Shown: positions 3,113 to 58,814, counted from the first letter of the stretch. The stretch is 64,000 nucleotides of DNA from Acidimicrobiia bacterium (GCA_022827785.1 JAJEIM010000031.1:32549-96548); one strand, 5' to 3'. Notes: generated by a model from the letters alone, not told the origin. Numbers and translations: made by a program.

Positions 3113-3350
3113 ACGAAGGGCTCGAATGTGTCACACCCCTTCTATACGTTGTCTATCGCCAAGCACCTACACCGGACGCAAGCGTCTCACCGATCGGAGC
3201 GGCCCGGCCCGCAGGGAACATTCACAGGCTCCAAAGGGCGAACCCGCCGTGACCCGGCCCCAACCCGGGCATGGCCGAACACGCCCCGAGCCAAGGACAG
3301 GTGGTGGCGGGGGAGGGCCCGGCGCGGAGCACCGATTTTCGCGACTTCAC
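3113..3350 (+). repeat. Dispersed conserved intergenic element, copy 1 of 4 (candidate structured ncRNA or MITE-like repeat)
   Basis: Core blocks are shared with the three other copies: gtcacac..tacgttg..cgccaagcacctacaccg..ccgatcgg..ggcccgcagggaaca..cccgggcatggccgaacacgc.ccga.ccaaggacaggtggtggcggggg.gggcccgg.gcgg.gcaccg.ttttcgcg. It lies between the convergent S41 and HpcH genes. Confidence 0.7.
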
Positions 3351-3454
3351 GAACTTTGGGCAGAGGACACCGCTAGCGGTGCCGTGAACCTGAGGTTCCC
3401 CGATTGCCGGTTCGCCGGCGGGCGATGCCCGTGTGCTTTCGGAGGCTTGGGGAG

Positions 3455-9736: not shown

Positions 9737-11173
9737 CTACCCCTCCTCCAGTACCCAGAAGTCCTTGGCGCCTCCCCCCTGGCTGGAGTTAACGACCAGG
9801 CTCCCTCGGCGCATGGCGATCCGGCAGAACGCCCCCGGCACGATGCGGGTCTCGCCCCCCGACAGAATGAAGGGCCGCAGGTCCACGTGGCGGGGCTCGA
9901 GGCGGCCGTCGATCAGGCAGGGCGCCCGGGACAGGGCCAGGGTGGGTTGGGCAACGAAGTCGGCCGGATCCTGGCGCAGGAGGGATGCGAACCGGTTCCG
10001 TTCCTCGGCGCTCGCATGGGGACCGACCAGCATCCCGTAGCCGCCGGACTCGCCCACTCGCTTGACCACGAGATGCTCCAGGTTGTCCAGGGTGTACTCC
10101 AGATCCTCGGGGCGGCGGCAGAGGTAAGTTTCCACGTTAGGGATGAGCGGTTCCTCCGCCAGGTAGTAGCGGATCATGTCGGGGACGAAGGCGTAGACGC
10201 TCTTGTCGTCGGCTACGCCCGTGCCCGGGGCGTTGACCACCGATACGTTGCTCAGCCGGGCGGCATGCAACAGGCCGGGGGCGCCGAGCAGAGAGTCCGG
10301 ACGGAACACGAGGGGGTCGAGGAAGTCGTCGTCGATCCGGCGGTAGATGACGTCCACCCGCCGCAGACCCGCCGTGGTGCGCATGTACACGTAACCGTCC
10401 TCGACCACCAGGTCCCGGCCCTCCACCAGTTCGGCGCCGATCTGGCGCGCCAGGAACATGTGCTCGTAGAAGGCCGAGTTGTATACCCCGGGGGTGAGGA
10501 GGACGACCGTCGGGTCGTCGCAACCCTCGGGCGCCATCTCGTGGAGGGTCCGGCGGAGGACCAGCCCGTAGTCCTCCACGGCTCCCACCCGGGAACGCCG
10601 GTAGAGGAGGCGCATGGCCGACTTGGTGGCCTTGCGGATGGCGATCATGTAGGAGACGCCTGAGGGAACTCGCAGGTTGTCCTCGAGAACCCGGAAGCCG
10701 TCCACGGTCCGGACCAGGTCGGTGCCGCAGATGGCCACCCAGATCCCCCTGGGGGCCTCGAATCCCTGCATCTCGATGCGATACTGGGGGCAGCCGAAGA
10801 CCATGTCCGGCGGGATTACCCCATCGGAGACGATCCGGGCCGAGTCGTATATGTCCCGTAGAAAGGCGTTGAGAGCGGCCAGGCGCTGCTCGAGTCCCCT
10901 CGCCAGGCCTCGCCATTCCGCACCCGCCATCACCCGCGGGATGCAGTCGATCGGGATGATGCGCTCGTCGGCCTCGTCGTCGCCGTACACGGTGAAGGTG
11001 ATGCCTTCGTGGGTGAAAGACCGGGTGACCCATTCGCCGATGGCGTTCATGTCGTCGTCGGAAGCCTCCAGGAGGGTCTCGTAGAGGTCCCGACCGTGGG
11101 AACGGGGGGTTCCGTCGCTCCGGAACAACTCGTCGTAGACGCCCGCGTCGAGGTCGTAGCCGTCGAACTTCAT
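9737..11173 (-). CDS. Circularly permuted type-2 ATP-grasp protein (DUF404/DUF407)
   Basis: Starting at the internal Met (MKFDGYDLDAGVYDELF...), at 11173 by codon arithmetic, the protein matches the circularly permuted ATP-grasp family that always partners with alpha-E and transglutaminase. The ORF track's extended N-terminus (to 11362) is low-complexity. Confidence 0.75.
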   Translation of the reverse strand: MKFDGYDLDAGVYDELFRSDGTPRSHGRDLYETLLEASDDDMNAIGEWVTRSFTHEGITFTVYGDDEADERIIPIDCIPRVMAGAEWRGLARGLEQRLAALNAFLRDIYDSARIVSDGVIPPDMVFGCPQYRIEMQGFEAPRGIWVAICGTDLVRTVDGFRVLEDNLRVPSGVSYMIAIRKATKSAMRLLYRRSRVGAVEDYGLVLRRTLHEMAPEGCDDPTVVLLTPGVYNSAFYEHMFLARQIGAELVEGRDLVVEDGYVYMRTTAGLRRVDVIYRRIDDDFLDPLVFRPDSLLGAPGLLHAARLSNVSVVNAPGTGVADDKSVYAFVPDMIRYYLAEEPLIPNVETYLCRRPEDLEYTLDNLEHLVVKRVGESGGYGMLVGPHASAEERNRFASLLRQDPADFVAQPTLALSRAPCLIDGRLEPRHVDLRPFILSGGETRIVPGAFCRIAMRRGSLVVNSSQGGGAKDFWVLEEG

Positions 11174-12649: not shown

Positions 12650-12930
12650 GTCGGGACCGGGCGGGAAACTCACCGCGGTCGCCCGCCCAGAATCCCGGTT
12701 GTCTCGCACCGGGCCCGGCCCCCGCCACCACCTGTCCTTGGCTTGGAGCGTGTTCGGCCATGCCCGGGTTGGGGCCGGCGTTGGCAGAGTGCTCCTTTTG
12801 AAGCCTGTCTGTTCCCTGCGGGCCGGCCGGTCCGATCGGGGTTGCGTCTTCGGCCGGTGTAGGTGCTTGGCGATAGGCAACGTATAGCGGGCGTGTGACG
12901 GTTTCAAGCCCTTTCTCCGAGAACGCGAAA
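12650..12930 (-). repeat. Dispersed conserved intergenic element, copy 2 of 4 (reverse orientation)
   Basis: The reverse complement aligns with copies 1, 3 and 4 over about 220 nt: gtcacacgcccgctatacgttgcctatcgccaagcacctacaccg...cccgggcatggccgaacacgctccaagccaaggacaggtggtggcgggggccgggcccggtgcg. It lies between the convergent SDR and lhr genes and abuts the SDR stop codon. Confidence 0.7.
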
Positions 12931-12947
12931 AGTCGGGGCTCGGGCGG

Positions 12948-15900
12948 TTACCTCCGGGCCCGGCTGGGAGAGCCTCGATAGGCGAGGCCTTTCGGGCTCA
13001 CTGCGAAACCGCCCTCCAGCAGGATGGCGCCGAGCGGGTGGTCGCCGGCCGGGAGGCCGTTGATGGTCTCCACGGTCAGCCGCCGGTGGCGGACTCCGAT
13101 CTCGGTCAGGGCGTCGGCTGCGGGGTTGTGGAGCTCGTCCGAGTCGGTGAGGAGGGTGGCGGTCTTGCCGCCCCGTTCCAGGAACAGCAGGGGCCGGCCG
13201 TCGTGGAGGATCACGTATGCGCCGGCCGAGCGGGAAGCCCGGCCCCGGGCCTCTTCGGGCCATGGCAGCAGGGTCCCGTACGGGTTGGCGGGATCGGCGG
13301 CGGCGAGGATCACGGTCCCTTCCTCGTTCTCTGCGGTCCGGAGCCGGTCAACGGCGCCCGGCAGCGCGAATTGAAGTCCCCCGAGACCCTCCACGAAGTA
13401 GCCACGGCGGATGCGTCCCGTCTCCTCCATGTGGTTGAGGATGGGGTAGAGGGTGGTCAGGCCGCCGGGGACGCTCTCCGCCCTGGCGCCGGCCCGGGTC
13501 ACCACCCCGTGGCGTTCCAGCAGGAGTTCCGTCCAGGCCGCACCCCACTCGGCATCGGCCACCTCGGTCGCACACAGATCGGCGACCAGGGACCACCTTC
13601 CCGACGATGAGGGAGGCATGGCGGAGGGCAGGCGGCGCCGGGAACGCCCGGAGCGGGACCGGGCCAGGCGGCGGATCCCTACGGCGCGCACAGGGGCGAG
13701 GGTGTCGTTGGTGACCTCTCCCGACCACACCAGGTCCCAGAGCGCATCGAGCGTGTCATCAAGGCGCTTGCCCCGGACTGCGAGGTGGATGTCCCGGAAG
13801 AAGCTGGCGCCCCGCTGCGAGAGGTGGGACCGGATGGCATGGTGCAGGTCCGTGTCGGGCAAGTCGTCCGCGGCGGGTCGATGGAGGACCGGTAGCTGCT
13901 CGCGCAGGTAGAGGGCCACCCTCCCGTCCCGGGGGCCGATGGCGCCCCGGCCCACCCACACCACCTCGCCAGACGCCATGAGCTGGTCGAGCATGGCGGG
14001 CGCGTAGTCGAGCCTCGCCGCCAGGACATCCCGTTCGAGGATCGAGGCGGGAACGGGAAGGCCCTGGAGGGTGCGGATGGTCTCGACCAGGGCCGACAGG
14101 TGGTTACGCCCGGTGCGGCCCACGCCCTGCCAGGCGGGCAGGAACCGCCCCAGGGTGGCGGCCTCGACCGCTTCGATCTCCCGGCGGAGCGCCGCCAGGC
14201 TCCGCCGCTTCAGCCGTCGCAGCACCCCGGTGTCCACCCATTCCTGGCCGGCCTCGCCCGGCCGGAAGGCGCCCCGGGCCACCGTTCCGGCCTGCTCGAG
14301 TGCCACCAGGGCCGCGCGGATGGCCGCCGGGGGCAGGCCCAGGGCCGAGCCGGCCTCCTCGGCGGTGAACGGCGCGTGGGTGCGCGCGTACCGTCCCACC
14401 ACCTCACCGAGCGGGTCCGGGCCGGTCTCCAGGTAGGCATGAGGAACCCCGGCCGGCGGTTGGACCCCCAGAGCGTCCCGGAGCCGTCCGGCATCCTCGA
14501 TGGCCGCCCAGCTCTGCGCGCCGGCCACTTGAACCCGGACGGCTCGGCGGCGCTTCTCCAGCTCGCGAAGCAAGCCGGATGCGGAGCCATCGGCGAGCCG
14601 GTCGGCCGCCGCCCGGCTGGTGAGCGGCCCGAGCGCCCGCAGCAGGTCGTGCAGCCCGTCCAGCCCCCTGGCCCGGCGTTCCGGGGTCAGGTACTGGAGC
14701 TCCAACTCGACGGTGGCGATCACGTCTTCGTCGAGCAGGTCGCGGAGTTCTCCCTCTCCCAGCAACTCGCGGAGCAGCTCCCGGTCGAGCGTGAGGGCCG
14801 TGGCCCGCCGTTCCGACGGGGCGGCGTCTCCCTCGTACAGGTAGGAGGCCACGAACTCGAAGAGGAGCGACGAGGCGAACGGTCCGGCCGAGGTGGTGTC
14901 CACCTCCACCACCCGCACCCGGCGGGCCGCGATGTCTCCGAGGAGCTCCCTCGCCGAGGGAAGGTCGAACACGTCCGAGAGGATCTCGCGGTAGGTCTCG
15001 AGCAGGATCGGGAACGAGCCGAAACGGGTGACGATGGCCATCAGGTCGGCAGCCCGGCGCCGCTGGAGCCATAGGGGGGTGCGACCGCCGGGGCGGCGGC
15101 GGGGCAGCAACAGGGCTCGGGCGGCGGCCTCCCGGAAGCGGGCAGCGAACATGGCCGTGCCGGAAAGTTCCTCGATGAGGATCGACTCCAGCTCGTCCGG
15201 GTCGAGGAGCAGGTCGTCGAGGGAGGGCAGGTCGTCGGTGTCGATGAAGCGGAACGAGATGCCGTCGTCGCTCCAGATGACGTCCAGATTGCGGCCGTAG
15301 CGGTTCCGTAGCCTCTGACTGATGGCCATTGCCCACGGCGCGTGGACCCGGCCGCCCAGAGGCGAGAGGATGGCAATCCGCCAGTCCCCGATCTCGTCAC
15401 GGAAACGTTCCACAACCACCGTCCGGTCGGTGGGAAGCACCCCGGTGGCGTCACGCTGCTCGCCGAGGTAGGCGACGAGGTTGCGGGCCGCCCACTCGTC
15501 CAGGTGGTACCGGTGCCGGAGCGTTTCCACCGCCCGGTCGGGCTCCATCGCCCCGACGGTGCGGATGAAGCGGCCGATCGCCCGCCCGGTCTCGACGGGA
15601 CGGCCCACCCGGTCGCCCTTCCAGAACGGCATCCGGCCCGACTCGGCGGGGGCGGGGATCACCTCCACCCGGTCGGCGGTGATGTCGCTGATCCTCCACG
15701 CCGACGTGCCGAGGACGAACACGTCGCCGGGACGGGACTCGTAAACCATCTCCTCGTCGAGCTCTCCCACCCGGCTGCCGTCAGGGAGGTTGACGGAATA
15801 CAGCCCGCGGTCGGGAATGGTTCCGGCGTTGGTCACCGCCAGGCGCTGGGCCCCCGAACGCGGGGTCAGCGTGTGCGTGACCCGGTCCCAGACCAGGCGG

Positions 15901-17354
15901 GGGCGCAACTCCCCGAACAGCTCGGACGGGTAGCGGCCGGCCAGCATGTCGAGGACCGCCTCGAACGGTCCGGGCGCCAGGTCGCGATAGGGGGCGGCCC
16001 GCCTGACCAGTGAGAGCAGGTCGTCCGCCTTCCATTCGTCCATCGCCACCGCCGCCACCACCTGCTGCGCCAGCACGTCGAGCGGACTCTGGGGAACGGC
16101 GGTGGGCTCCACCGACCGTGCCAGCATCAGGTCGGCCACCACGGTGGCCTCGAGGAGGTCCCCGCGGAACTTGGGGAAGATCTTGGCCACGCTGGTCGCT
16201 CCCACCTGATGGCCCGCCCTCCCCACCCGCTGCAGGCCGGAGGCCACGCTGGTGGGGGATTCGACGTGGATCACGAGGTCGACCGCCCCCATGTCGATGC
16301 CCAGCTCCAGCGTCGAGGTCGCCACCACCGCCGGCAACTCGCCTCGCTTGAGCAGGTCTTCGATGACGATCCGCTGCTCGCGCGACACCGACCCGTGATG
16401 GGCGCGGGCGATCTCATCTCCCGCCAGGTTGTTCAGTTCGGCGCAGAGCCGCTCGGACAGCCTGCGGGAGTTGGCGAACACGATGGTGGACCGGTGCGCA
16501 TTGACCAGGTCCAGCAGCGCCGGATACACGGAGGGCCAGATGGACCGGTAGCCCGGGTCGGCGGGTTCGGAGTTGAGCGGATCGGGCGGCGTCGGCGCGG
16601 CCATGTCTTCGACCGGGACGATGATCTCCACCTCCAGACCGCGCTTTCCGGGGGCATCGACGACGGTCACCGGTCGCGGCGTCCAGGTGTCGCCATCCAT
16701 GGTTCCGCCGCCCATGAACTCGGCAATCGTCGAGAGGGGTTGCTGGGTGGCGGAGAGCCCGATGCGGAGGGGAGGGACGGCGGCTATCTCCTCGAGCCTC
16801 TCCAGCGACAGGGCCAGGTGCGATCCCCGCTTGGTCCCGGCCACGGCGTGGATCTCGTCGAGGATAACCCACCGGACGGAGGCCAGCATCTCGCGGGCGG
16901 CGCTGGTGAGGATCAGGAACAGGGATTCAGGGGTGGTGATGAGGATGTCCGGGGGGTGGCGCCGCATGCGCTGGCGGTCGGCGGGCGGGGTGTCCCCGGT
17001 GCGGATGGCGGCGACAACCTCCGGAGGGGGCGATATGCCGTGGCGGTCGGCGGCGTGGGCGATTCCGGTCAGCGGCGCCCGGAGGTTGCGCTCCACGTCA
17101 TGGGCCAGAGCCTTCATCGGGGAGATGTAGAGGACGCGGCAGCGCCGGGACTTGGCGGGAACCGGTTCGGTGAGGAGGCGGTCGAGCGTGTAGAGGAACG
17201 CGGCCAGCGTCTTGCCCGATCCGGTGGGGGCGTGGATCAGGGTGTGACGCCCGGCGGCGATGGCCGGCCAGCCGCCGGCCTGGGCCTCGGTGGGGCCGGG
17301 GAAGGCCTCCTCGAACCAGGTGGCGGTGGCGGGGGAGAACAGGTCTTTCAGCAC
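12948..17354 (-). CDS. lhr: Lhr-like large ATP-dependent helicase (DEAD/DEAH superfamily 2)
   Basis: At 1468 aa, with Walker A HAPTGSGKT, LDEIHAVAGTKRG (DExH), and a long C-terminal extension typical of Lhr. Confidence 0.85.
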   Translation of the reverse strand: MLKDLFSPATATWFEEAFPGPTEAQAGGWPAIAAGRHTLIHAPTGSGKTLAAFLYTLDRLLTEPVPAKSRRCRVLYISPMKALAHDVERNLRAPLTGIAHAADRHGISPPPEVVAAIRTGDTPPADRQRMRRHPPDILITTPESLFLILTSAAREMLASVRWVILDEIHAVAGTKRGSHLALSLERLEEIAAVPPLRIGLSATQQPLSTIAEFMGGGTMDGDTWTPRPVTVVDAPGKRGLEVEIIVPVEDMAAPTPPDPLNSEPADPGYRSIWPSVYPALLDLVNAHRSTIVFANSRRLSERLCAELNNLAGDEIARAHHGSVSREQRIVIEDLLKRGELPAVVATSTLELGIDMGAVDLVIHVESPTSVASGLQRVGRAGHQVGATSVAKIFPKFRGDLLEATVVADLMLARSVEPTAVPQSPLDVLAQQVVAAVAMDEWKADDLLSLVRRAAPYRDLAPGPFEAVLDMLAGRYPSELFGELRPRLVWDRVTHTLTPRSGAQRLAVTNAGTIPDRGLYSVNLPDGSRVGELDEEMVYESRPGDVFVLGTSAWRISDITADRVEVIPAPAESGRMPFWKGDRVGRPVETGRAIGRFIRTVGAMEPDRAVETLRHRYHLDEWAARNLVAYLGEQRDATGVLPTDRTVVVERFRDEIGDWRIAILSPLGGRVHAPWAMAISQRLRNRYGRNLDVIWSDDGISFRFIDTDDLPSLDDLLLDPDELESILIEELSGTAMFAARFREAAARALLLPRRRPGGRTPLWLQRRRAADLMAIVTRFGSFPILLETYREILSDVFDLPSARELLGDIAARRVRVVEVDTTSAGPFASSLLFEFVASYLYEGDAAPSERRATALTLDRELLRELLGEGELRDLLDEDVIATVELELQYLTPERRARGLDGLHDLLRALGPLTSRAAADRLADGSASGLLRELEKRRRAVRVQVAGAQSWAAIEDAGRLRDALGVQPPAGVPHAYLETGPDPLGEVVGRYARTHAPFTAEEAGSALGLPPAAIRAALVALEQAGTVARGAFRPGEAGQEWVDTGVLRRLKRRSLAALRREIEAVEAATLGRFLPAWQGVGRTGRNHLSALVETIRTLQGLPVPASILERDVLAARLDYAPAMLDQLMASGEVVWVGRGAIGPRDGRVALYLREQLPVLHRPAADDLPDTDLHHAIRSHLSQRGASFFRDIHLAVRGKRLDDTLDALWDLVWSGEVTNDTLAPVRAVGIRRLARSRSGRSRRRLPSAMPPSSSGRWSLVADLCATEVADAEWGAAWTELLLERHGVVTRAGARAESVPGGLTTLYPILNHMEETGRIRRGYFVEGLGGLQFALPGAVDRLRTAENEEGTVILAAADPANPYGTLLPWPEEARGRASRSAGAYVILHDGRPLLFLERGGKTATLLTDSDELHNPAADALTEIGVRHRRLTVETINGLPAGDHPLGAILLEGGFAVSPKGLAYRGSPSRARR

Positions 17355-17417
17355 TTTGATGGCAGGCTATCGCGTGCCTGTGACAGAGCGACCTGCGAGG
17401 GCCGGTTGCGGGAGCTG

Positions 17418-46285: not shown

Positions 46286-47485
46286 ATGAGCGACACCGTC
46301 CTGGTGGTCGGGGTTGGTATGACCCCGTTCGTGGGCTTCCGGGCGGATGCGAGCGTCCGCGACATAGTGGTCGAGGCGTCCCGGGAGGCTCTGATCGACG
46401 CAGGCACCCGGGCGGGGCCGGTCGACATGGGCGTTGCGGCTTACGAGAGCGACCACTTCAACCGCCAGATGAGCCTGGGCCATATCCTCCAGGATGCCGT
46501 CGGGCTCGCGGGCAAGCCCATTGTCCGTGTCGAAGGCGGCGGCGCTACGGGAGCGCTCGCCATACGGACCGCGGTCATGGCGCTCCGGGCCGGGGACGCC
46601 CGGGCCGTTCTGGTCTACGGAGGTGAGACCAACGGCCACTCGGTCGATCGGGCCACCGCGACGGAGCTTCTCGCGCTTTCGGCCGATTTCGAGTGGGAGA
46701 CCCCCGTGTTCGGGACCTTCGCCGCTCCCTACGCGCTGATGATCACCGAGCACATGCGGCGGTACGGGACCACGACCGAGCAGTTCGCCGAGATCGCGGT
46801 GAAGAACAGACGCATCGCCCTGGACAATCCCTGCGCCCACAAGGGCATGTCGATCACGGTGGCGGACGTGCGTGGCTCGTCGCCGCTGTCGGATCCCTAT
46901 CGACTGTTCGACGCCAGCCTGCTCAGCGACGGCGCTGCGGCCGTGCTGCTCGCCACGCGGGAGTGGGCCGAGCAGCACTCGTCCACGTTCTCCGAGCGTC
47001 CTCCGGTGGCGGTCCTCGGCTCCGGGTCCTCCACCGACCTTCCCCGTCTCTCCGACCGGTCGGATGAACTGTTCCCCCACTTCGCCGCCAAGCGGAGGGC
47101 GGCCCGGGACGCCTACCGGATGGCCGGTATCGAGGATCCGGCGCGGGAGATCGACGTGGCCGAGGTGTACGACTCCTTCAGCGGAGCGGAACTCCAGGCC
47201 TACGAGGATCTCGGTCTGTGCCTGGTGGGGGAGGGCGGTGTGGCCGCCGCCGAGGGTCGTTTCGACCTGGGCGGCCAGGTCTGGGTCAACACTTCGGGCG
47301 GGCTGCTGGGCAGGGGATCGGCGGTCGGGGCCACCGGAATCGCCCAGGCCGTGGAGGTGGTCCGCCAACTCAGGGGAGAGGTGGCGGGCTCCCGAGCCGT
47401 TCCGGATGCCCGCATCGGAATCACCGACACCCACGCCGGCGTCGGCTCGCTGGCAGTGGTCAACGTGTTCGGGCGCACCCGATGA
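46286..47485 (+). CDS. Thiolase-like protein (SCP-x/nsLTP-type thiolase family)
   Basis: LVVGVGMTPF...thiolase fold...GLLGRGSAVGATG. It partners with the downstream DUF35 OB-fold protein. Confidence 0.75.
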   Translation: MSDTVLVVGVGMTPFVGFRADASVRDIVVEASREALIDAGTRAGPVDMGVAAYESDHFNRQMSLGHILQDAVGLAGKPIVRVEGGGATGALAIRTAVMALRAGDARAVLVYGGETNGHSVDRATATELLALSADFEWETPVFGTFAAPYALMITEHMRRYGTTTEQFAEIAVKNRRIALDNPCAHKGMSITVADVRGSSPLSDPYRLFDASLLSDGAAAVLLATREWAEQHSSTFSERPPVAVLGSGSSTDLPRLSDRSDELFPHFAAKRRAARDAYRMAGIEDPAREIDVAEVYDSFSGAELQAYEDLGLCLVGEGGVAAAEGRFDLGGQVWVNTSGGLLGRGSAVGATGIAQAVEVVRQLRGEVAGSRAVPDARIGITDTHAGVGSLAVVNVFGRTR

Positions 47486-47537
47486 GCCTGATCGAGCGGC
47501 ACTTGAGACGCTCACCGCGCGAGTTCGCCAAGCGTAG

Positions 47538-47785
47538 ACGGCAGAATCTGTCACACCCTCGTTGTACGTTGGCAATTGCCAAGCACCTACACCGACCGCA
47601 AGCGTCTCACCGATCGGAGTGGTCGGCCCGCAGGGAACATCCAGAGGCTTCACAGGGAGCGACCCGCAGACACCCGGCACCAGCCCGGGCATGGCCGAAC
47701 ACGCTCCGAACCAAGGACAGGTGGTGGCGGGGGAGGGCCCGGCGCGGGGCACCGGTTCGGCGGGGTGGCGATTTTCGCGTTCTCG
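47538..47785 (+). repeat. Dispersed conserved intergenic element, copy 3 of 4
   Basis: tgtcacaccctcgttgtacgttggcaattgccaagcacctacaccgaccgcaagcgtctcaccgatcgg...cccgggcatggccgaacacgctccgaaccaaggacaggtggtggcgggggagggcccggcgcggggcaccgg...attttcgcg is nearly identical to copy 1 over the core. It is inserted between the thiolase and its usual DUF35 partner. Confidence 0.7.
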
Positions 47786-47960
47786 GCTCGTTCCTTCTTG
47801 CCGCACGCCATGTAATGGCCCTCGTTTTCGCACCTCGGAGAAGGAGGCCCACGCGGTACTTGCGGCTCGGTCTCCGCGGGGCTGGCGCCTGATGCGGGTG
47901 ACGGGTGCCGAGCGGGGGGCCACTCCATCAGGGGATCGGTACTCCTTGATCCACATCGAG

Positions 47961-50864: not shown

Positions 50865-52300
50865 GTGGCCAGCGACTCCGGGTCGGATACGTGGGGGTGG
50901 CGTTCGAGAGTTACTACGCCGACGAGCACGACCAGTACCGGCGGGCCACCACCGGCCTCCGCCGCCTCGCCGACGAACTGGACTTCGACCTGGTGGCCAT
51001 CGACCACGGGATCGGTGATCTGGAGGCCGCACGCGAGGCAGCCGGCCACCTGTCGTCCCAGCAACTCGACTTCCTGGTCCTCCAGGCCGCGGCCTGCGCG
51101 TCGGGCGAGTTGCTCGAACCGCTGGCGGCGGTTGCTCCCCGGCTCGGCCTCTGGGCCACTCCCGAGCCGGTCCTGGAGGGATCGATCCAGCTCCACTCCC
51201 TGGTCTCGACCAACCACTTCGCCTCGATAATCCGCCGCTACCTGCGAGATCGGGGGACACCCTACAAGTGGTTCCTCGGCCACATCGACGAGCCGGACAC
51301 GGAACGGCGCTTCCGCGTCACCTTCCGCGCCCTGAAGGGGATCAAGGCGATGGCCTCGGCGCGGATCGGCTGGATAGGCGGCATCTCTCCCGGTTTCTAC
51401 AACATGCTGTTCGACGAGGAGAGCCTGGAAAGCCGGTTCGGAACCACGGTCGGCACGCACACCATCGAAGACGTAGTCCAATCGGCTCGGGCCGTCGAGA
51501 CCGGCCCGGCCGCATCCGTGGTGCGGAAGGCCACCGACCTGGCCACCGAGGTGACCGCTCCCTCACTCGGCATGGACCGCAATGCCCGCCTCTACCTGGC
51601 CCTCCGCCGGATCATCGAGACGGAGGGGTACGACGCCCTGGCAGTCCAGTGCTGGCCCAGCTTCCAGGAGGACTTCGACATGGCCCCGTGCATGGCCTAC
51701 AGCCTGCTGGGCTCGGAGGACGGTGTGGCGGTGTCCTGCGAGGGGGACGTGCCCGGGGCGGTGACGATGCTCCTGATGAACTCGATGTCGCCCCATCATG
51801 GTTCCGCCACTCTGCTGGACCTGACCACCCTCGACCTGGAAACCGACGCCGCCCTGCTCTGGCATTGTGGGGTCACGCCCCGCCATTTCGGCGCAGGCAA
51901 CGGGATCCGCTGGGTGGATCATGTGACGCTGGGACGCAAGTCGGACATCCGCTACGGCGTGTCGGGCGACCTGTTGTTCGCTCCCCAGCAGACGACCATC
52001 TCCTATGCGGGGGACGATTTCCGCGAGCTGTTCATCGCCACGGCCGAGGTGGTGGACACGGGCAAGGCCGGGTTCGACGGCACCCGCGGCTGGTTCACCC
52101 GGTTCCGGCTCAACGGGGAGCCGATCGAGTTGATGGACCTGGTCAACACCGTGATGGTCCAGGGCCGCGAGCACCACTACGCGGTGGCGCAGGGAGACCT
52201 GTCCTCGGAGCTGGCGGAAGTGGCCGCCTGGCTCGGGATGCGCACCACTAGGCCCATCCCGATGCGGGACTACCTACAGATCGATGACCTGAGCGGATGA
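50861..52300 (+). CDS. L-fucose/L-arabinose isomerase family protein
   Basis: A ~480 aa protein with RVGYVGVAFESYYAD...IGWIGGISPGFYNM...GSATLLDL...WHCG, resembling the FucI/AraA C-terminal domain family. ATGA overlap with dhaL. Confidence 0.6.
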   Translation: MSGQRLRVGYVGVAFESYYADEHDQYRRATTGLRRLADELDFDLVAIDHGIGDLEAAREAAGHLSSQQLDFLVLQAAACASGELLEPLAAVAPRLGLWATPEPVLEGSIQLHSLVSTNHFASIIRRYLRDRGTPYKWFLGHIDEPDTERRFRVTFRALKGIKAMASARIGWIGGISPGFYNMLFDEESLESRFGTTVGTHTIEDVVQSARAVETGPAASVVRKATDLATEVTAPSLGMDRNARLYLALRRIIETEGYDALAVQCWPSFQEDFDMAPCMAYSLLGSEDGVAVSCEGDVPGAVTMLLMNSMSPHHGSATLLDLTTLDLETDAALLWHCGVTPRHFGAGNGIRWVDHVTLGRKSDIRYGVSGDLLFAPQQTTISYAGDDFRELFIATAEVVDTGKAGFDGTRGWFTRFRLNGEPIELMDLVNTVMVQGREHHYAVAQGDLSSELAEVAAWLGMRTTRPIPMRDYLQIDDLSG

Positions 52301-54889: not shown

Positions 54890-56077
54890 TTGGTCCCATG
54901 CCCGCCGATCATTGGGGCCGATCAGAACTATCATGTGGCGGGTCCCGACCGGAGGGCACTCTTGACAGTATCCGAGCGTTCAGCGGCCGCCCGGTGGCGC
55001 CGCGTCGCATGGGCGGGGTTGGTCACCGTCGCTCTGCTGGCGGCGGGGACCGTTCCGGGATCGGCCACCACCGGCGCGGACGGAGGGTTCTCCGACGTGG
55101 GCGAGGGCGGCACGCATACGCCCGCCATCGAGGCCCTCTCAGCCATGGGTGTGTTCTCGGGCACCGGATGTGGGGACGGCCTCTTCTGTCCCCGCGACCC
55201 GGTGGAGCGGTCGGTGATGGCCGTCTGGCTGATCCGGGTGCTCGGCCGTGAGGTCGACGCCACCGGAACATCCCGGTTCGCCGACGTCGACGCCGACCTG
55301 TGGTGGTCACCCTACGCGGAGGAACTCGCCGACCGGGAGATCACTACGGGATGCGGTACCGAACCACTCCGCTACTGCCCGGAAAAGACCGTCAACCGGG
55401 GGCAGATGGCCACCTTCCTGGTCCGCGCCTTCGATCTCGAACCCGCCGCCGCGGCCGGGTTCATCGATGTTGCCGAGGGCGGAACGCACAGCGCCAGCAT
55501 CGACGCCCTGTACGCGGCCGGCATCACCACCGGATGCGGTACCGATCCGCTCCGCTACTGCCCGCTCAAGGCCGTGAACCGGGGCCAGATGGCCACCTTC
55601 CTGCACCGGGCATTACACATGCAGGCAGAGGAGACCGGGTCCGCGCCTGTCGAGATAAGCGACGACGTCCCGGATGCCGACCTGACCGACGTGGCCACCG
55701 GCGACACCGTGAACCTCCGGTCGGTCTTCACCGGCGACAAGGCGGTCATGTTCTGGTTCTGGGCCGAGTGGTGACCGACTTGCCAGGGGCATGCCCCCGA
55801 GGTCGAGCAGTTTGCTCGAAAAAACGCCGGAAAGGTCACAGTCGTCGGCATCAACCCGCGAACATGGAACAATCTGACCGATGCCAGGAGCTTTGTGAGC
55901 AGGTACGGGTTAACTTTCACCAACCTCTGGGACAGCTCCGATACCGTGCGTAGGCACTATGGCAGCCCCTATACGTCTAGGGCGCTGCTGGTCGACAAGC
56001 AGGGCAACCGGGTGGAGCAGGCTCCGAGCCTCTTCTCCGCCGCCAGGTTCCAGGGGCTGGTCGACAACCTCGACTAG
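54890..56077 (+). CDS. Candidate selenoprotein: a cell-envelope protein with three SLH-like repeats fused to a TlpA/ResA-like thioredoxin-fold domain. An in-frame TGA (55772-55774) sits at the first Cys of the CxxC motif. The alternative reading is a pseudogene truncated at 55774
   Basis: The track ORF 54890..55774 ends ...KAVMFWFWAEW-TGA. The same frame continues without interruption as PTCQGHAPEVEQFARKNAGKVTVVGIN...YGLTFTNLWD...ALLVDKQGNRV... to a TAG at 56075-77; the track ORF 55895..56077 is in the same frame. Together this forms a textbook TlpA fold (FWAxW-C/U-xx-C) with TGA at the nucleophilic Cys position. Three upstream repeats read F[SAI]DV...TGCG...[LR][FY]CP...V.R..MA..L.R. Confidence 0.5.
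55777..55804 (+). promoter_or_regulatory. Candidate bacterial SECIS-like hairpin immediately 3' of the in-frame UGA
   Basis: GACUUGCCAGGGG-CAUG-CCCCCGAGGUC forms a 4 bp GC apical stem (GGGG/CCCC) with a 4-nt loop containing G, plus a lower stem GACUU/GAGGUC. The apical loop lies about 16 nt downstream of the UGA. Confidence 0.35.
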
Positions 56078-57007: not shown

Positions 57008-57622
57008 TTGGTGCCATTATGGTGCCTGCCCCGGACGCCGCCGGAGAGGAATCAAGGCGTGGCCAGACGCAGCACCGGACCCAGCCAGAGCAACCGGACC
57101 CGATCCTCGCGCGGAGCGGGCGAACGGTCGCCGGACCGCACGGTGGTGTACACCGACGGCGCCTGTTCCGGGAATCCCGGCCCGGGAGGATGGGCCTGGG
57201 TGATCCCCGGAGGCCGGTACCGGAGCGGCTCGGAAACACACAGCACCAACCAGCGGATGGAGCTGGCCGCCGCCCTTGACGCGGTGCGAAGTATCGGTGG
57301 CGCGGTGGAGGTCGTCAGCGATTCGGCGTATGTCGTGAACTGCTTCCGGCAGGGTTGGTGGAAGGGATGGCTAGCCCGCGGCTGGATCAACACGAAGAAG
57401 CAGCCGGTGGCGAACCGTGACCTCTGGGAACCACTTATCGACCTCTACCGGTCCAGGCCGGTCAGCTTCCGATGGGTGAAGGGACACGGCGGCAACAAAT
57501 GGAACGACCTAGCCGACCGCCTGGCCGTCCAGGCGTCGCTGGCGCAAGAAGGCGTCGAGGGCGAGGGTACTCCGCCTCCCGGCCATGTAGCCATCTCCGA
57601 CCGCGATGGATGGACGTTTTGA
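57008..57622 (+). CDS. rnhA: Ribonuclease HI
   Basis: VVYTDGACSGNPGPGGWAWVI...NQRMELAAAL...VKGHGGNKWNDLADRLA carries the DEDD catalytic residues. The low-complexity N-terminal ~45 aa of the track ORF may not be translated; an alternative GTG start lies near 57150. Confidence 0.8.
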   Translation: MVPLWCLPRTPPERNQGVARRSTGPSQSNRTRSSRGAGERSPDRTVVYTDGACSGNPGPGGWAWVIPGGRYRSGSETHSTNQRMELAAALDAVRSIGGAVEVVSDSAYVVNCFRQGWWKGWLARGWINTKKQPVANRDLWEPLIDLYRSRPVSFRWVKGHGGNKWNDLADRLAVQASLAQEGVEGEGTPPPGHVAISDRDGWTF

Positions 57623-57754
57623 GCCCCCAGGCTCGTTCCGTTCGTGATTCGCGAGGTCTTCCGGGATCCGGGTGACCCGACCCGGAGATCGTTCGGTCCT
57701 CCCAAGGAACGATTCCCCACCCCTCATATTCGGATCGGCGTGATAGGAGCGGAC

Positions 57755-57995
57755 GAGGGGGTTGAACTTGTCACACCCCCGCGATACGTTGCCTCTCGCC
57801 AAGCACCTACACCGGCCGATGATTCAAGACCGATTCGGCTCGGCCGGCCCGAGGGAACATCGATTGGCTCTGCGGAGCGAAGTGCCGTCCCCGGCATCGA
57901 CCGGGCATGGCCGAACACGCTCCGAGCCGGGGAAAGGTGGTGGCGGGGGCCGGGCCCGGTGCGGAGCACCGGTTTGGGCGGTTTTCGCGCTCTTT
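57755..57995 (+). repeat. Dispersed conserved intergenic element, copy 4 of 4
   Basis: gttgaacttgtcacacccccgcgatacgttgcctctcgccaagcacctacaccg...ccgattcgg...cccgagggaaca...ccgggcatggccgaacacgctccgagccggggaaaggtggtggcgggggccgggcccggtgcggagcaccggtttgggcggttttcgcg. It lies between the convergent rnhA gene and a membrane-protein gene. Confidence 0.7.
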
Positions 57996-58031
57996 CTGAC
58001 TCAGGATGCTGCGCGGATCCCGGTCTCGGCG

Positions 58032-58715
58032 CTAGCGCTCGGCGAAGGCCATCTCCCGGCGGAACTTCTTCCAATCGCCGACTCGCGTGGACCAGAGGAT
58101 GTCGGTGACGATCGACACCACGCCCACGGCTACCAGGAGGACGGTCGCCCACGCGGGGACGCCGGCGATCAGCCCGGCTGGGATGAGCGCGAAGGGCACG
58201 ATCTTCGACACCAGGGCACCCGAAGCATGCATCCAGGCCCGCCGCTCGGCTGCGGTGGTCAGGTAGGTGGCGTAGTCGGTCTTCACCCCCGGCTGCGGTC
58301 GGGTGACGGTGCCGACGAACCAATGCGTGAACCGTATGCCCACGAGTCGCCCCACCACCAGGTGGGCCAGGCCATGGGTGGTCACGAGCAGGACGCCGGT
58401 CCCGGCAAGCAGGAGTAGGCCATTCCACGGTTCGGGGGCGTTGTAGGCTAGGCCGACCAGCACCAGCCCCACCACGGTTCCGGCCGAGGCGGCCGCGGTG
58501 CCCGTTCCGAGGGGAACGGTAAGCAGAGCCCACCGTTCGAAGGCGGTGCGGTCGATCGCGGCGATCCGCTCGGCGAATGCCCCTACCAGGTCCGGAGCCT
58601 TCTTGGCGGCGCCGACGACCTTCCAGAAGCCGGATCCTTTCAGACCTGCGGCAGGGTCCGACGCCAACCGTTCCTCGACGGCGCTCAACACCCGTTCGGC
58701 CTCACTCCGCTCCAT
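58032..58715 (-). CDS. Hypothetical polytopic membrane protein
   Basis: Several hydrophobic helices (LLTVPLGTGTAAASAGTVVGLVLVGLAY, LLLAGTGVLLVTTHGLAHLVVG, IPAGLIAGVPAWATVLLVAVGVVSIV). No family was recognised. Confidence 0.4.
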   Translation of the reverse strand: MERSEAERVLSAVEERLASDPAAGLKGSGFWKVVGAAKKAPDLVGAFAERIAAIDRTAFERWALLTVPLGTGTAAASAGTVVGLVLVGLAYNAPEPWNGLLLLAGTGVLLVTTHGLAHLVVGRLVGIRFTHWFVGTVTRPQPGVKTDYATYLTTAAERRAWMHASGALVSKIVPFALIPAGLIAGVPAWATVLLVAVGVVSIVTDILWSTRVGDWKKFRREMAFAER

Positions 58716-58814
58716 GTCCGATCTCCCCGCTACGGCCGTCCCGATGCTAATTAGACGCGCCCGCTAGCTGTCTCTGGTCGAAGGTCACTGTGCCCAGCTG
58801 GGGGACGCTCCCCA

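Follow-up and report, generated by a model that had tools for sequence, protein, structure and literature searches.

A candidate family of DNA-damage-inducible structured small RNAs in uncultured Acidimicrobiia

An intergenic repeat is present four times in a 64,000-nucleotide stretch of DNA from an Acidimicrobiia bacterium (referred to here as the window), and its copies are probably paralogous genes of a new family of structured small RNAs, approximately 185-210 nt in length, which would be inducible by DNA damage. The family is previously undescribed, is absent from Rfam and is carried by uncultured Acidimicrobiia, some of them from a marine sponge metagenome. Its most informative feature, which was absent from the initial annotation of the window, is a promoter motif of the PafBC type held in common with the helicase gene lhr, and on the strength of this common motif the RNA may be part of the DNA damage response. 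The family also behaves in part like an insertion, and this is unexplained by a plain small RNA gene.

The four copies, their setting and the wider family

The window has a G+C content of 68.5% and, judged by its sequence, its lineage is Acidimicrobiia; its Lhr helicase is closest to Acidimicrobiia-labelled proteins (best match 93% identity), and its thiolase is 100% identical to one from an ENA metagenome scaffold. It is a core chromosomal stretch which, according to Pfam, carries genes for DapA, RNase J, FtsK, BCKDH, a sulfatase, KatG, Dak and Lhr, and no transposase was found among the ~30 of ~55 predicted genes taken in by the Pfam scan. Tandem repeats with a period of ~180 bp are also present inside the gene for an S41 peptidase (2662-2720 and 2842-2900) and that for a 298-aa protein (55340-55431 and 55523-55614); both genes encode SLH domains, and the repeats are repeated SLH modules.

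An HMM of the element core had exactly four matches in the window (3123-3339 on the + strand, 12907-12689 on the - strand, and 47543-47758 and 57762-57975 on the + strand), with E-values of 1e-61 to 1e-65, and a covariance model found the same four copies and no extra one. Allowing up to three mismatches, the partial promoter pattern TGTCACAC-N7-ATACGTTG has four occurrences in the window, compared to 0.08 expected by chance. The initial annotation had described four dispersed copies, three pointing one way and one the other, and all are present in these orientations to within a few bases of where they had been placed. The conserved blocks that it had listed were likewise all found, and are invariant or nearly so when the four copies are aligned (gtcacac, tacgttg, gccaagcacctacaccg, ccgat and gggaaca, and in addition ccgggcatggccgaacacgc, ggtggtggcggggg, gggcccgg and ttttcgcg). 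The variation lies between these blocks in a few short stretches with 1-2-nt indels, as had also been observed.

Every member of the family has the same oriented layout of promoter, RNA and terminator, in a unit of ~235-270 bp. The promoter region reads GGGG-TTGAAT-nn..., with GAA-nn-TGTCAC at about -33 to -23, then 10 bases and then the -10 sequence TA(C/T)GTT, and the predicted RNA start is ~7 nt past the -10, near AUCGCCAAGCACC. The 3' part of the RNA consists of a G-rich tail, a GC hairpin and a U-run, in which GGUGGUGGCGGGGG-(A)GGGCCC is followed by the hairpin (most commonly CCGGUGC-GGA-GCACCGG) and the U-run is embedded in TTTTCGCG. A terminator made up of a hairpin and a U-run is present in nearly all copies.

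The first copy, c1, extends over 3122-3343 (+). Its promoter (3122-3150) comprises the -35-like TCGAAT at 3122-3127, the -26 element TGTCAC at 3129-3134 and the -10 TACGTT at 3145-3150, and its RNA body of ~190 nt (3154-3343) starts at UAUCGCCAAGCACC and finishes with the terminator hairpin plus the U-run motif TTTTCGCG (3336-3343), with a covariance-model score of 158 bits. Copy c2 (12907-12662, -) has a promoter region at 12879-12931 with TTGAAA as the -35 (12907-12902), CGTCAC (12900-12895) and the -10 TACGTT (12884-12879), ahead of which the 3'-end motif TTTTCGCGTTCT is repeated in direct orientation (12931-12920); its RNA body with an extended terminator region (12662-12875) is located directly after the Lhr stop codon, and the covariance model matched 12684-12875 with 139 bits. 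In copy c3 (47542-47783, +) the promoter at 47542-47570 contains CAGAAT (47542-47547), TGTCAC (47549-47554) and the -10 TACGTT (47565-47570), and the RNA body and terminator at 47574-47783, which include TTTTCGCGTTCT at 47772-47783, scored 164 bits. Copy c4 (57762-57993, +) has TTGAAC (57762-57767), TGTCAC (57769-57774) and the -10 TACGTT (57785-57790) in its promoter at 57762-57790, and an RNA body at 57794-57993 in which the terminator CCGGUGC-GGA-GCACCGG is followed by TTTTCGCGCTCT (57982-57993), scoring 173 bits.

From these signals each copy appears to be an independent transcription unit, with its own promoter and terminator and no tie to a co-oriented downstream gene, and the copies are presumably transcribed. 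A scanner for consensus promoters and terminators found nothing, its rules (a TATAAT-like -10 and at least five T) being unfit for high-GC actinobacterial signals. A general shared promoter was considered and rejected, as the family promoter motif was found only at family members. No conserved ORF was found on either strand, and the frames that begin at the only conserved ATGs diverge after ~7 codons; because of this, and because 1-2-nt indels are scattered through the element, it is non-coding, in agreement with the initial annotation.

The family has 37 members in total, of which 33 were found outside the window in related genomes and metagenomes, and it is therefore not a repeat restricted to this stretch of DNA. 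A pattern scan of a metagenome collection returned 32 loci, 28 with the element and four that were chance matches, and the remaining members are in loci fetched around homologues of the flanking proteins. The marine sponge Sarcotragus foetidus is the source of one of these assemblies, the metagenome LXNI01. A search for spurious ORFs that overlap the element gave only four proteins, one of which led to the orthologue of c1 in locus L161. Nothing similar to the element was found in plasmid, phage and viral collections, and when the 17-mer GGCATGGCCGAACACGC was used against a genome-contig collection the element was in none of the matches listed, which number at least 116. The initial annotation had recognised no known RNA in the repeats, and this was borne out by Rfam 15, which gave 0 matches over the whole window at gathering thresholds and, at E<=10 around c1 and c4, only chance matches to eukaryotic miRNA, lncRNA and snoRNA families. 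One family member, at L127 29-293, is broken off at GGUGGUGGUG by sequence of lower G+C content that resembles the end of an insertion sequence.

The promoter motif, PafBC and lhr

PafBC promoters carry the motif tGTCgg(N10)tA(N3)T, in which the sequence is read at the GTC triplet; a PafBC-specific -26 element replaces the -35 in these promoters while the canonical -10 is kept (PMC8635444). The family promoter, TGTCAC-N10-TAnnnT, has the geometry of this actinobacterial promoter of the RecA-independent DNA damage response. All 37 members have the GTC triplet without change, with a spacing to the -10 of N10 in 36 of them and N11 in the member at L160; the bases after GTC are AC, versus gg in the mycobacterial consensus. 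Approximately half of the members carry a -35-like TTGAAN at 17 bp from the TAnnnT -10; in the others it is degenerate, and the conserved part of this region is GAA, not TTG. The conserved TGTCAC sits where the spacer of a sigma-A promoter would be, and such a spacer is normally free to vary in sequence.

The exact pattern TGTC-N12-TANNNT occurs at four sites in the window, compared to 0.96 expected. Three of these are elements, c2 falling outside the exact set as it has CGTC, and the only site which is not an element is located 9 nt upstream of lhr. This motif, TGTCACAGGCACGCGATAGCCT (17364-17385, -), is not a family member; it has the form TGTCAC-N10-TAnnnT with no -35, and ends 9 nt before the GTG start of the Lhr helicase gene (12948-17354, -). 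It is conserved in two relatives, L117 and L118, at 9970-9991 in both, as TGTCA(C/T)-N10-TAGCCT, also with no -35. In mycobacteria, lhr is induced via the PafBC pathway after treatment with mitomycin C (PMC9841417). The motif implies that lhr in this lineage would be damage-inducible and leaderless or near-leaderless.

TGTCAC-N10-TAnnnT was also seen before a DISARM-like helicase/MZB(DUF1998)/PLD operon (L118 3815-3836, +), before the divergent neighbour of this operon (L118 3749-3770, -) and before a GmrSD-type restriction gene (L155 15829-15850, +). The lhr, helicase and GmrSD versions of the motif are all without a -35, and these defence genes may share the damage-response promoter.

Since the family promoter has PafBC geometry and the same motif is present at lhr, a PafBC-like activator is proposed for all copies. 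Membership of the RNA genes in a PafBC-like regulon is well motivated by the motif, though unproven, and the copies with a usable -35, approximately half, might fire without the activator. No gene for a WYL-domain protein was found among the loci fetched. To our knowledge the members of the PafBC regulon known so far are protein-coding, and here the motif fronts a multicopy non-coding RNA.

RNA fold, orthologues and sites of insertion

RNAalifold gave unstable structures on raw MAFFT alignments because CCGG/GGCC motifs pair in many registers, and therefore the structure tested was assembled from recurrent single-sequence MFE folds. The resulting fold is branched, and its 5' and 3' parts pair. 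Helix P1 (CGCC/GGCG and CACC/GGUG) closes the molecule, and inside it are P2, a 7-bp hairpin with a variable tip, the single-stranded GGGAACA, and an arm formed by P4 (GGAGCG/CGCUCC), P5 (GCCG/UGGC) and P6 (CCCGG/CCGGG) with the near-invariant GGGCAUGGCCGA(A/C)CACGCUCC. P3 is weak, pairing in only 66-69% of cells, and the terminator hairpin is the last element of the structure.

Support for this fold was determined from two alignments. The first, made independently with MAFFT from 29 sequences, has 88% of its cells paired and 11 pairs with changes on both sides, compared to 4.7 ± 1.6 in shuffles and 4-7 in slid controls. The second, with 36 sequences, is model-fitted and biased in favour of the tested structure; here 91.9% of cells pair and 27 of 42 pairs are changed on both sides (8.9 ± 2.0 in shuffles and 6-13 in slid controls), with covariation at each of the seven P2 pairs. 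Clear cases come from the orthologues of c3. P2 is rewritten between genomes, from CCGACCG/TGGTCGG in the window to CTGGTC/GACCAG in L157, GCGGTCG/CGACCGC in L159 and CGGTCCGC/GCGGACCG in L160. Within P1, G-C is replaced by A-U in the c3 orthologues at L155-L157, and the CCCGG/CCGGG hairpin changes from CCCGGC/GCCGGG to CCCGAC/GUCGGG in L159. Compensatory changes maintain the pairing of P1, P2, P4-P6 and the terminator, P2 being the strongest helix and P3 a weak one. Most pairs are uninformative on pairing because long runs are invariant on both helix strands, and the folding energy is no better than that of shuffled sequence (z = -1.48 and +0.34).

The window paralogues are 72-88% identical to one another, and as they are no more similar than this they are old, with no recent burst. 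The positional orthologue of c4 is at L141, where blastn aligns 57012-58778 contiguously at 81.6%. Between these two loci the flanking coding DNA is 85% identical and the flanking intergenic DNA 47-57%; for the RNA, whose blocks are intact, the identity is 75% in a pairwise comparison (78% over the multi-sequence RNA alignment), and there is almost no change in the promoter core (TGTCAC plus the -10). Orthologues of c3 are present at the same site between the thiolase and DUF35 genes in L153 and L155-L158, and one of c1 at the same site between the S41 peptidase and HpcH genes in L161. This persistence amid decayed flanks is the pattern of a maintained gene and not that of decaying repeat DNA, and the orthologues are under purifying selection. 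Together with the promoter and terminator of each copy and the compensatory changes, it favours the family of paralogous non-coding RNAs that the initial annotation had offered as one of its two readings.

In two of the c3 orthologues, L155 11289-11483 and L156 7524-7717, the otherwise invariant GGGCAUGG has become GGUCCCGG, and the L155 copy is also without GGGCCCGG. These altered copies may be decaying, or the block may tolerate change.

The occupancy of individual sites differs between relatives. The site between the Lhr and SDR genes, which holds c2 in the window, is empty in L119, where the two stop codons overlap; in L118 it has only the TTTTCGCGAC motif followed by REP-like hairpin modules, with no RNA, and in L117 (14450-14600) the promoter and first ~40 nt are fused to a gene for a 941-aa SLH/RCC1-repeat protein. 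At the thiolase-DUF35 site, which holds c3, L160 has no copy and the two genes overlap at CTGATG; five genomes have a + copy there, and L159 a divergent one in the - orientation. An extra, divergent copy in L158 splits two genes that overlap in the window, L157 and L159. The family is found in both orientations, and a further empty site is at 52288-52300 of the window.

The whole c3 insertion is ~394 bp (47493-47886, +) and is located between the thiolase and DUF35/OB-fold genes, bracketed by GCCTGAT at 47486-47492 and 47887-47893. In the region 47483-47492 the thiolase gene terminates at a new TGA located two codons ahead of its ancestral GCC-TGA stop. The ancestral stop survives just downstream, consistent with an insertion that duplicated the old stop/start overlap. 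The extra L158 copy has a ~10-bp flanking duplication. Duplications of 7-12 bp flank both of the operon-splitting insertions, and these bases coincide exactly with the stop/start overlap, which selection would need to preserve. The inserts are 394-446 bp, more than 100 bp longer than the homologous core. Terminal inverted repeats, for which the initial annotation had suggested looking, are not common to the four window copies. A 10-nt inverted pair around c4 (57661-57670 and 58014-58023) was rejected as a candidate, as it is not kept in the orthologue at L141.

Every unit ends in TTTTCGCG(T/A)(T/C)CT, and motifs of the TTTTCGCG type occur in the window only at element boundaries (12920-12931, 47772-47783 and 57982-57993). 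Besides its occurrence at the 3' end, TTTTCGCGTTCT is found immediately before the promoter in ~12 of 30 copies. The upstream motif, ~10 nt from the promoter, is direct in L134, L137, L152, L127 and others, and inverted in L157, L159 and L160, which have CGCGAAAA and TTTTCGCG at the two ends. This boundary motif might mark a junction, serve as an insulating terminator or be a site of recombination. Following ~12 of 30 members there are REP-like modules (seen at L140 9850-10050, L142, L137, L135 and L125, and at L118 14500-14640 without the RNA), in which a 20-bp palindrome, GGGCGTCATATATGACGCCC, is followed by one to four CCTGAACCTCAGG units in tandem. The window version, found after c1 (3366-3395), keeps the hairpin with a different stem sequence, CACCGC-TA-GCGGTG (3368-3381), and then has GTGAACCTGAGG.

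Alternative explanations, proposed mechanism and known systems

The other reading of the initial annotation was a MITE-like repeat, that is, a selfish non-autonomous mobile element in which the promoter, hairpins and terminator are passengers and conservation reflects common descent. Much of the site data fits such an element: the Lhr-SDR site is empty, reduced to REP-like modules or partly filled in relatives, the thiolase-DUF35 site is empty or filled in either orientation, the L158 copy splits overlapping genes, short duplications bracket both operon-splitting insertions, and many copies have TTTTCGCG-type motifs at both ends, direct or inverted. We nevertheless consider it unlikely, as common terminal inverted repeats are lacking, the divergence of the paralogues excludes a recent burst, orthologues persist while their flanks decay, with changes that are compensatory and not random, the inserts exceed the core by so much that no transposon ends are defined, and no transposase is associated with the family. 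The differences between relatives and the operon-splitting inserts with short duplications are thus what stands of the mobile element, and even as target-site duplications the latter are ambiguous, since the duplicated bases are ones that selection would keep. A second explanation at the level of DNA is a cluster of protein-binding sites (e.g. a PafBC decoy or landing site) with insulating terminators, whose transcript is incidental. In its favour are the location of copies between convergent genes or inside split operons, the T-run/CGCG motifs at both ends, the REP-like palindromes that often come after them and the lack of any variation in most of the conserved blocks, which is as expected for DNA-binding sites; substitutions that preserve pairing in P1, P2, P5 and the terminator instead mark selection on RNA or single strands and not on duplex sites, and family members keep a strict orientation with respect to their promoter and terminator, which makes this explanation very improbable.

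If the element is an RNA, it could be a constitutive, housekeeping-type RNA that binds protein, such as a 6S/Ms1-like binder of RNA polymerase or another sequestering RNA, and the likeness to PafBC promoters would then be coincidental. Its length of ~190 nt, the pairing of its 5' and 3' parts as in 6S RNA, the long invariant single-stranded blocks, which suit protein recognition, and the half or so of copies in which TTGAAN at 17 bp from TAnnnT makes a normal sigma-A promoter all agree with this. We find it rather doubtful, however, given that there is no Rfam 6S match even at E<=10, that the predicted fold is branched and not a rod with a central bubble, that at least four diverged copies per genome are unlike 6S or Ms1, and that all 37 members keep GTC in the spacer while the -35 is poorly conserved, lhr having the same motif with no -35. 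A cis-acting leader or riboswitch, a small protein or a type I toxin-antitoxin locus can be regarded as effectively refuted. Multicopy intergenic repeats of E. coli (Sib/QUAD and Ldr) are type I toxin-antitoxin loci, which counts for the last of these, and the gene that comes after c3 and after a few metagenomic copies is indeed co-oriented. By a crude GC3-based gene call, 25 of 32 rows (about three quarters) have their next downstream gene on the opposite strand, and in the window three of the four copies are between convergent genes. As the next gene is usually on the other strand the element is not a 5' leader, and a riboswitch was rejected on the same count and because the terminator closes the unit. 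A Sib/QUAD-like toxin-antitoxin locus and a small protein are opposed by the lack of an ORF conserved on either strand, frames differing after ~7 codons; the reverse-strand ORFs vary in frame and length (7-39 aa) and are non-hydrophobic.

A family of damage-inducible small RNAs remains the preferred reading. Following DNA damage, a PafBC-like WYL activator would switch on all copies, and the RNA would then act in trans. A protein or RNA partner may bind at the long invariant blocks, with the variable P2 tip possibly setting the paralogues apart. In a bolder form of this reading, which we put forward as a speculation that is unlikely to hold, the family is a hitherto unknown RNA arm of the actinobacterial RecA-independent (PafBC/WYL) response, a damage-inducible RNA cassette that also propagates to new intergenic sites. 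If the cassette were captured at DNA breaks as it propagates, this would account for insertions that split operons, have short duplications and lack transposon ends. The RNA might act on repair, on the defence genes which bear the motif (the DISARM-like helicase and GmrSD) or on the WYL regulator itself.

The PafBC regulon is the main DNA damage response of actinobacteria, and from a limited literature search we know of no small RNA within it. If the RNAs are damage-induced, a post-transcriptional or RNA-protein layer would be added to this response. The family is also a case of a small RNA gene that is partly insertion-like, as it splits operons and differs between relatives and is then kept by purifying selection, and it bears on how bacterial small RNA genes arise and spread. 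For annotators, the covariance model covers an abundant and unannotated feature of Acidimicrobiia genomes.

Among known systems the promoter is closest to those of PafBC (RecA-NDp) in mycobacteria and other actinobacteria, which have the same tGTC..-N10-tA(N3)T, with a -26 GTC and a -10 (PMC8635444), and lhr, a known member of the PafBC regulon (PMC9841417), has the same motif in this window. Compared to PafBC promoters, the family has AC in place of gg, an extra conserved GAA upstream and, in some copies, a -35-like hexamer. As a set of RNA genes it resembles Qrr1-5, LhrC1-5 and the Sib/QUAD RNAs of E. coli, which also have several diverged intergenic copies per genome, each having a promoter and an intrinsic terminator of its own as well as conserved blocks and variable segments. 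The family is unrelated to Qrr, LhrC or Sib by sequence or Rfam; at ~190 nt it is longer than Qrr or LhrC, it lacks the toxin ORF that Sib has on the opposite strand and, unlike all three, it has some copies inside operons and positions that differ between close relatives. It shares with 6S and Ms1 RNA a length of ~190 nt, paired ends, actinobacterial occurrence and plausible protein binding, and differs from them in having no Rfam 6S match, a branched and not rod-like fold, multiple copies (four in 64 kb) and a promoter of the damage-response type. Its likeness to Correia/CREE of Neisseria, BOX/RUP of Streptococcus, ERIC and REP/BIME lies in their being structured intergenic repeats of 100-300 bp, sometimes with promoter or terminator activity, and in its polymorphic sites and adjoining REP-like hairpins. 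Those repeats have terminal inverted repeats or simple palindromes and usually many near-identical copies, whereas the family described here has no terminal inverted repeats and consists of complete, oriented promoter-RNA-terminator units which are diverged from one another and evolve by compensatory change.
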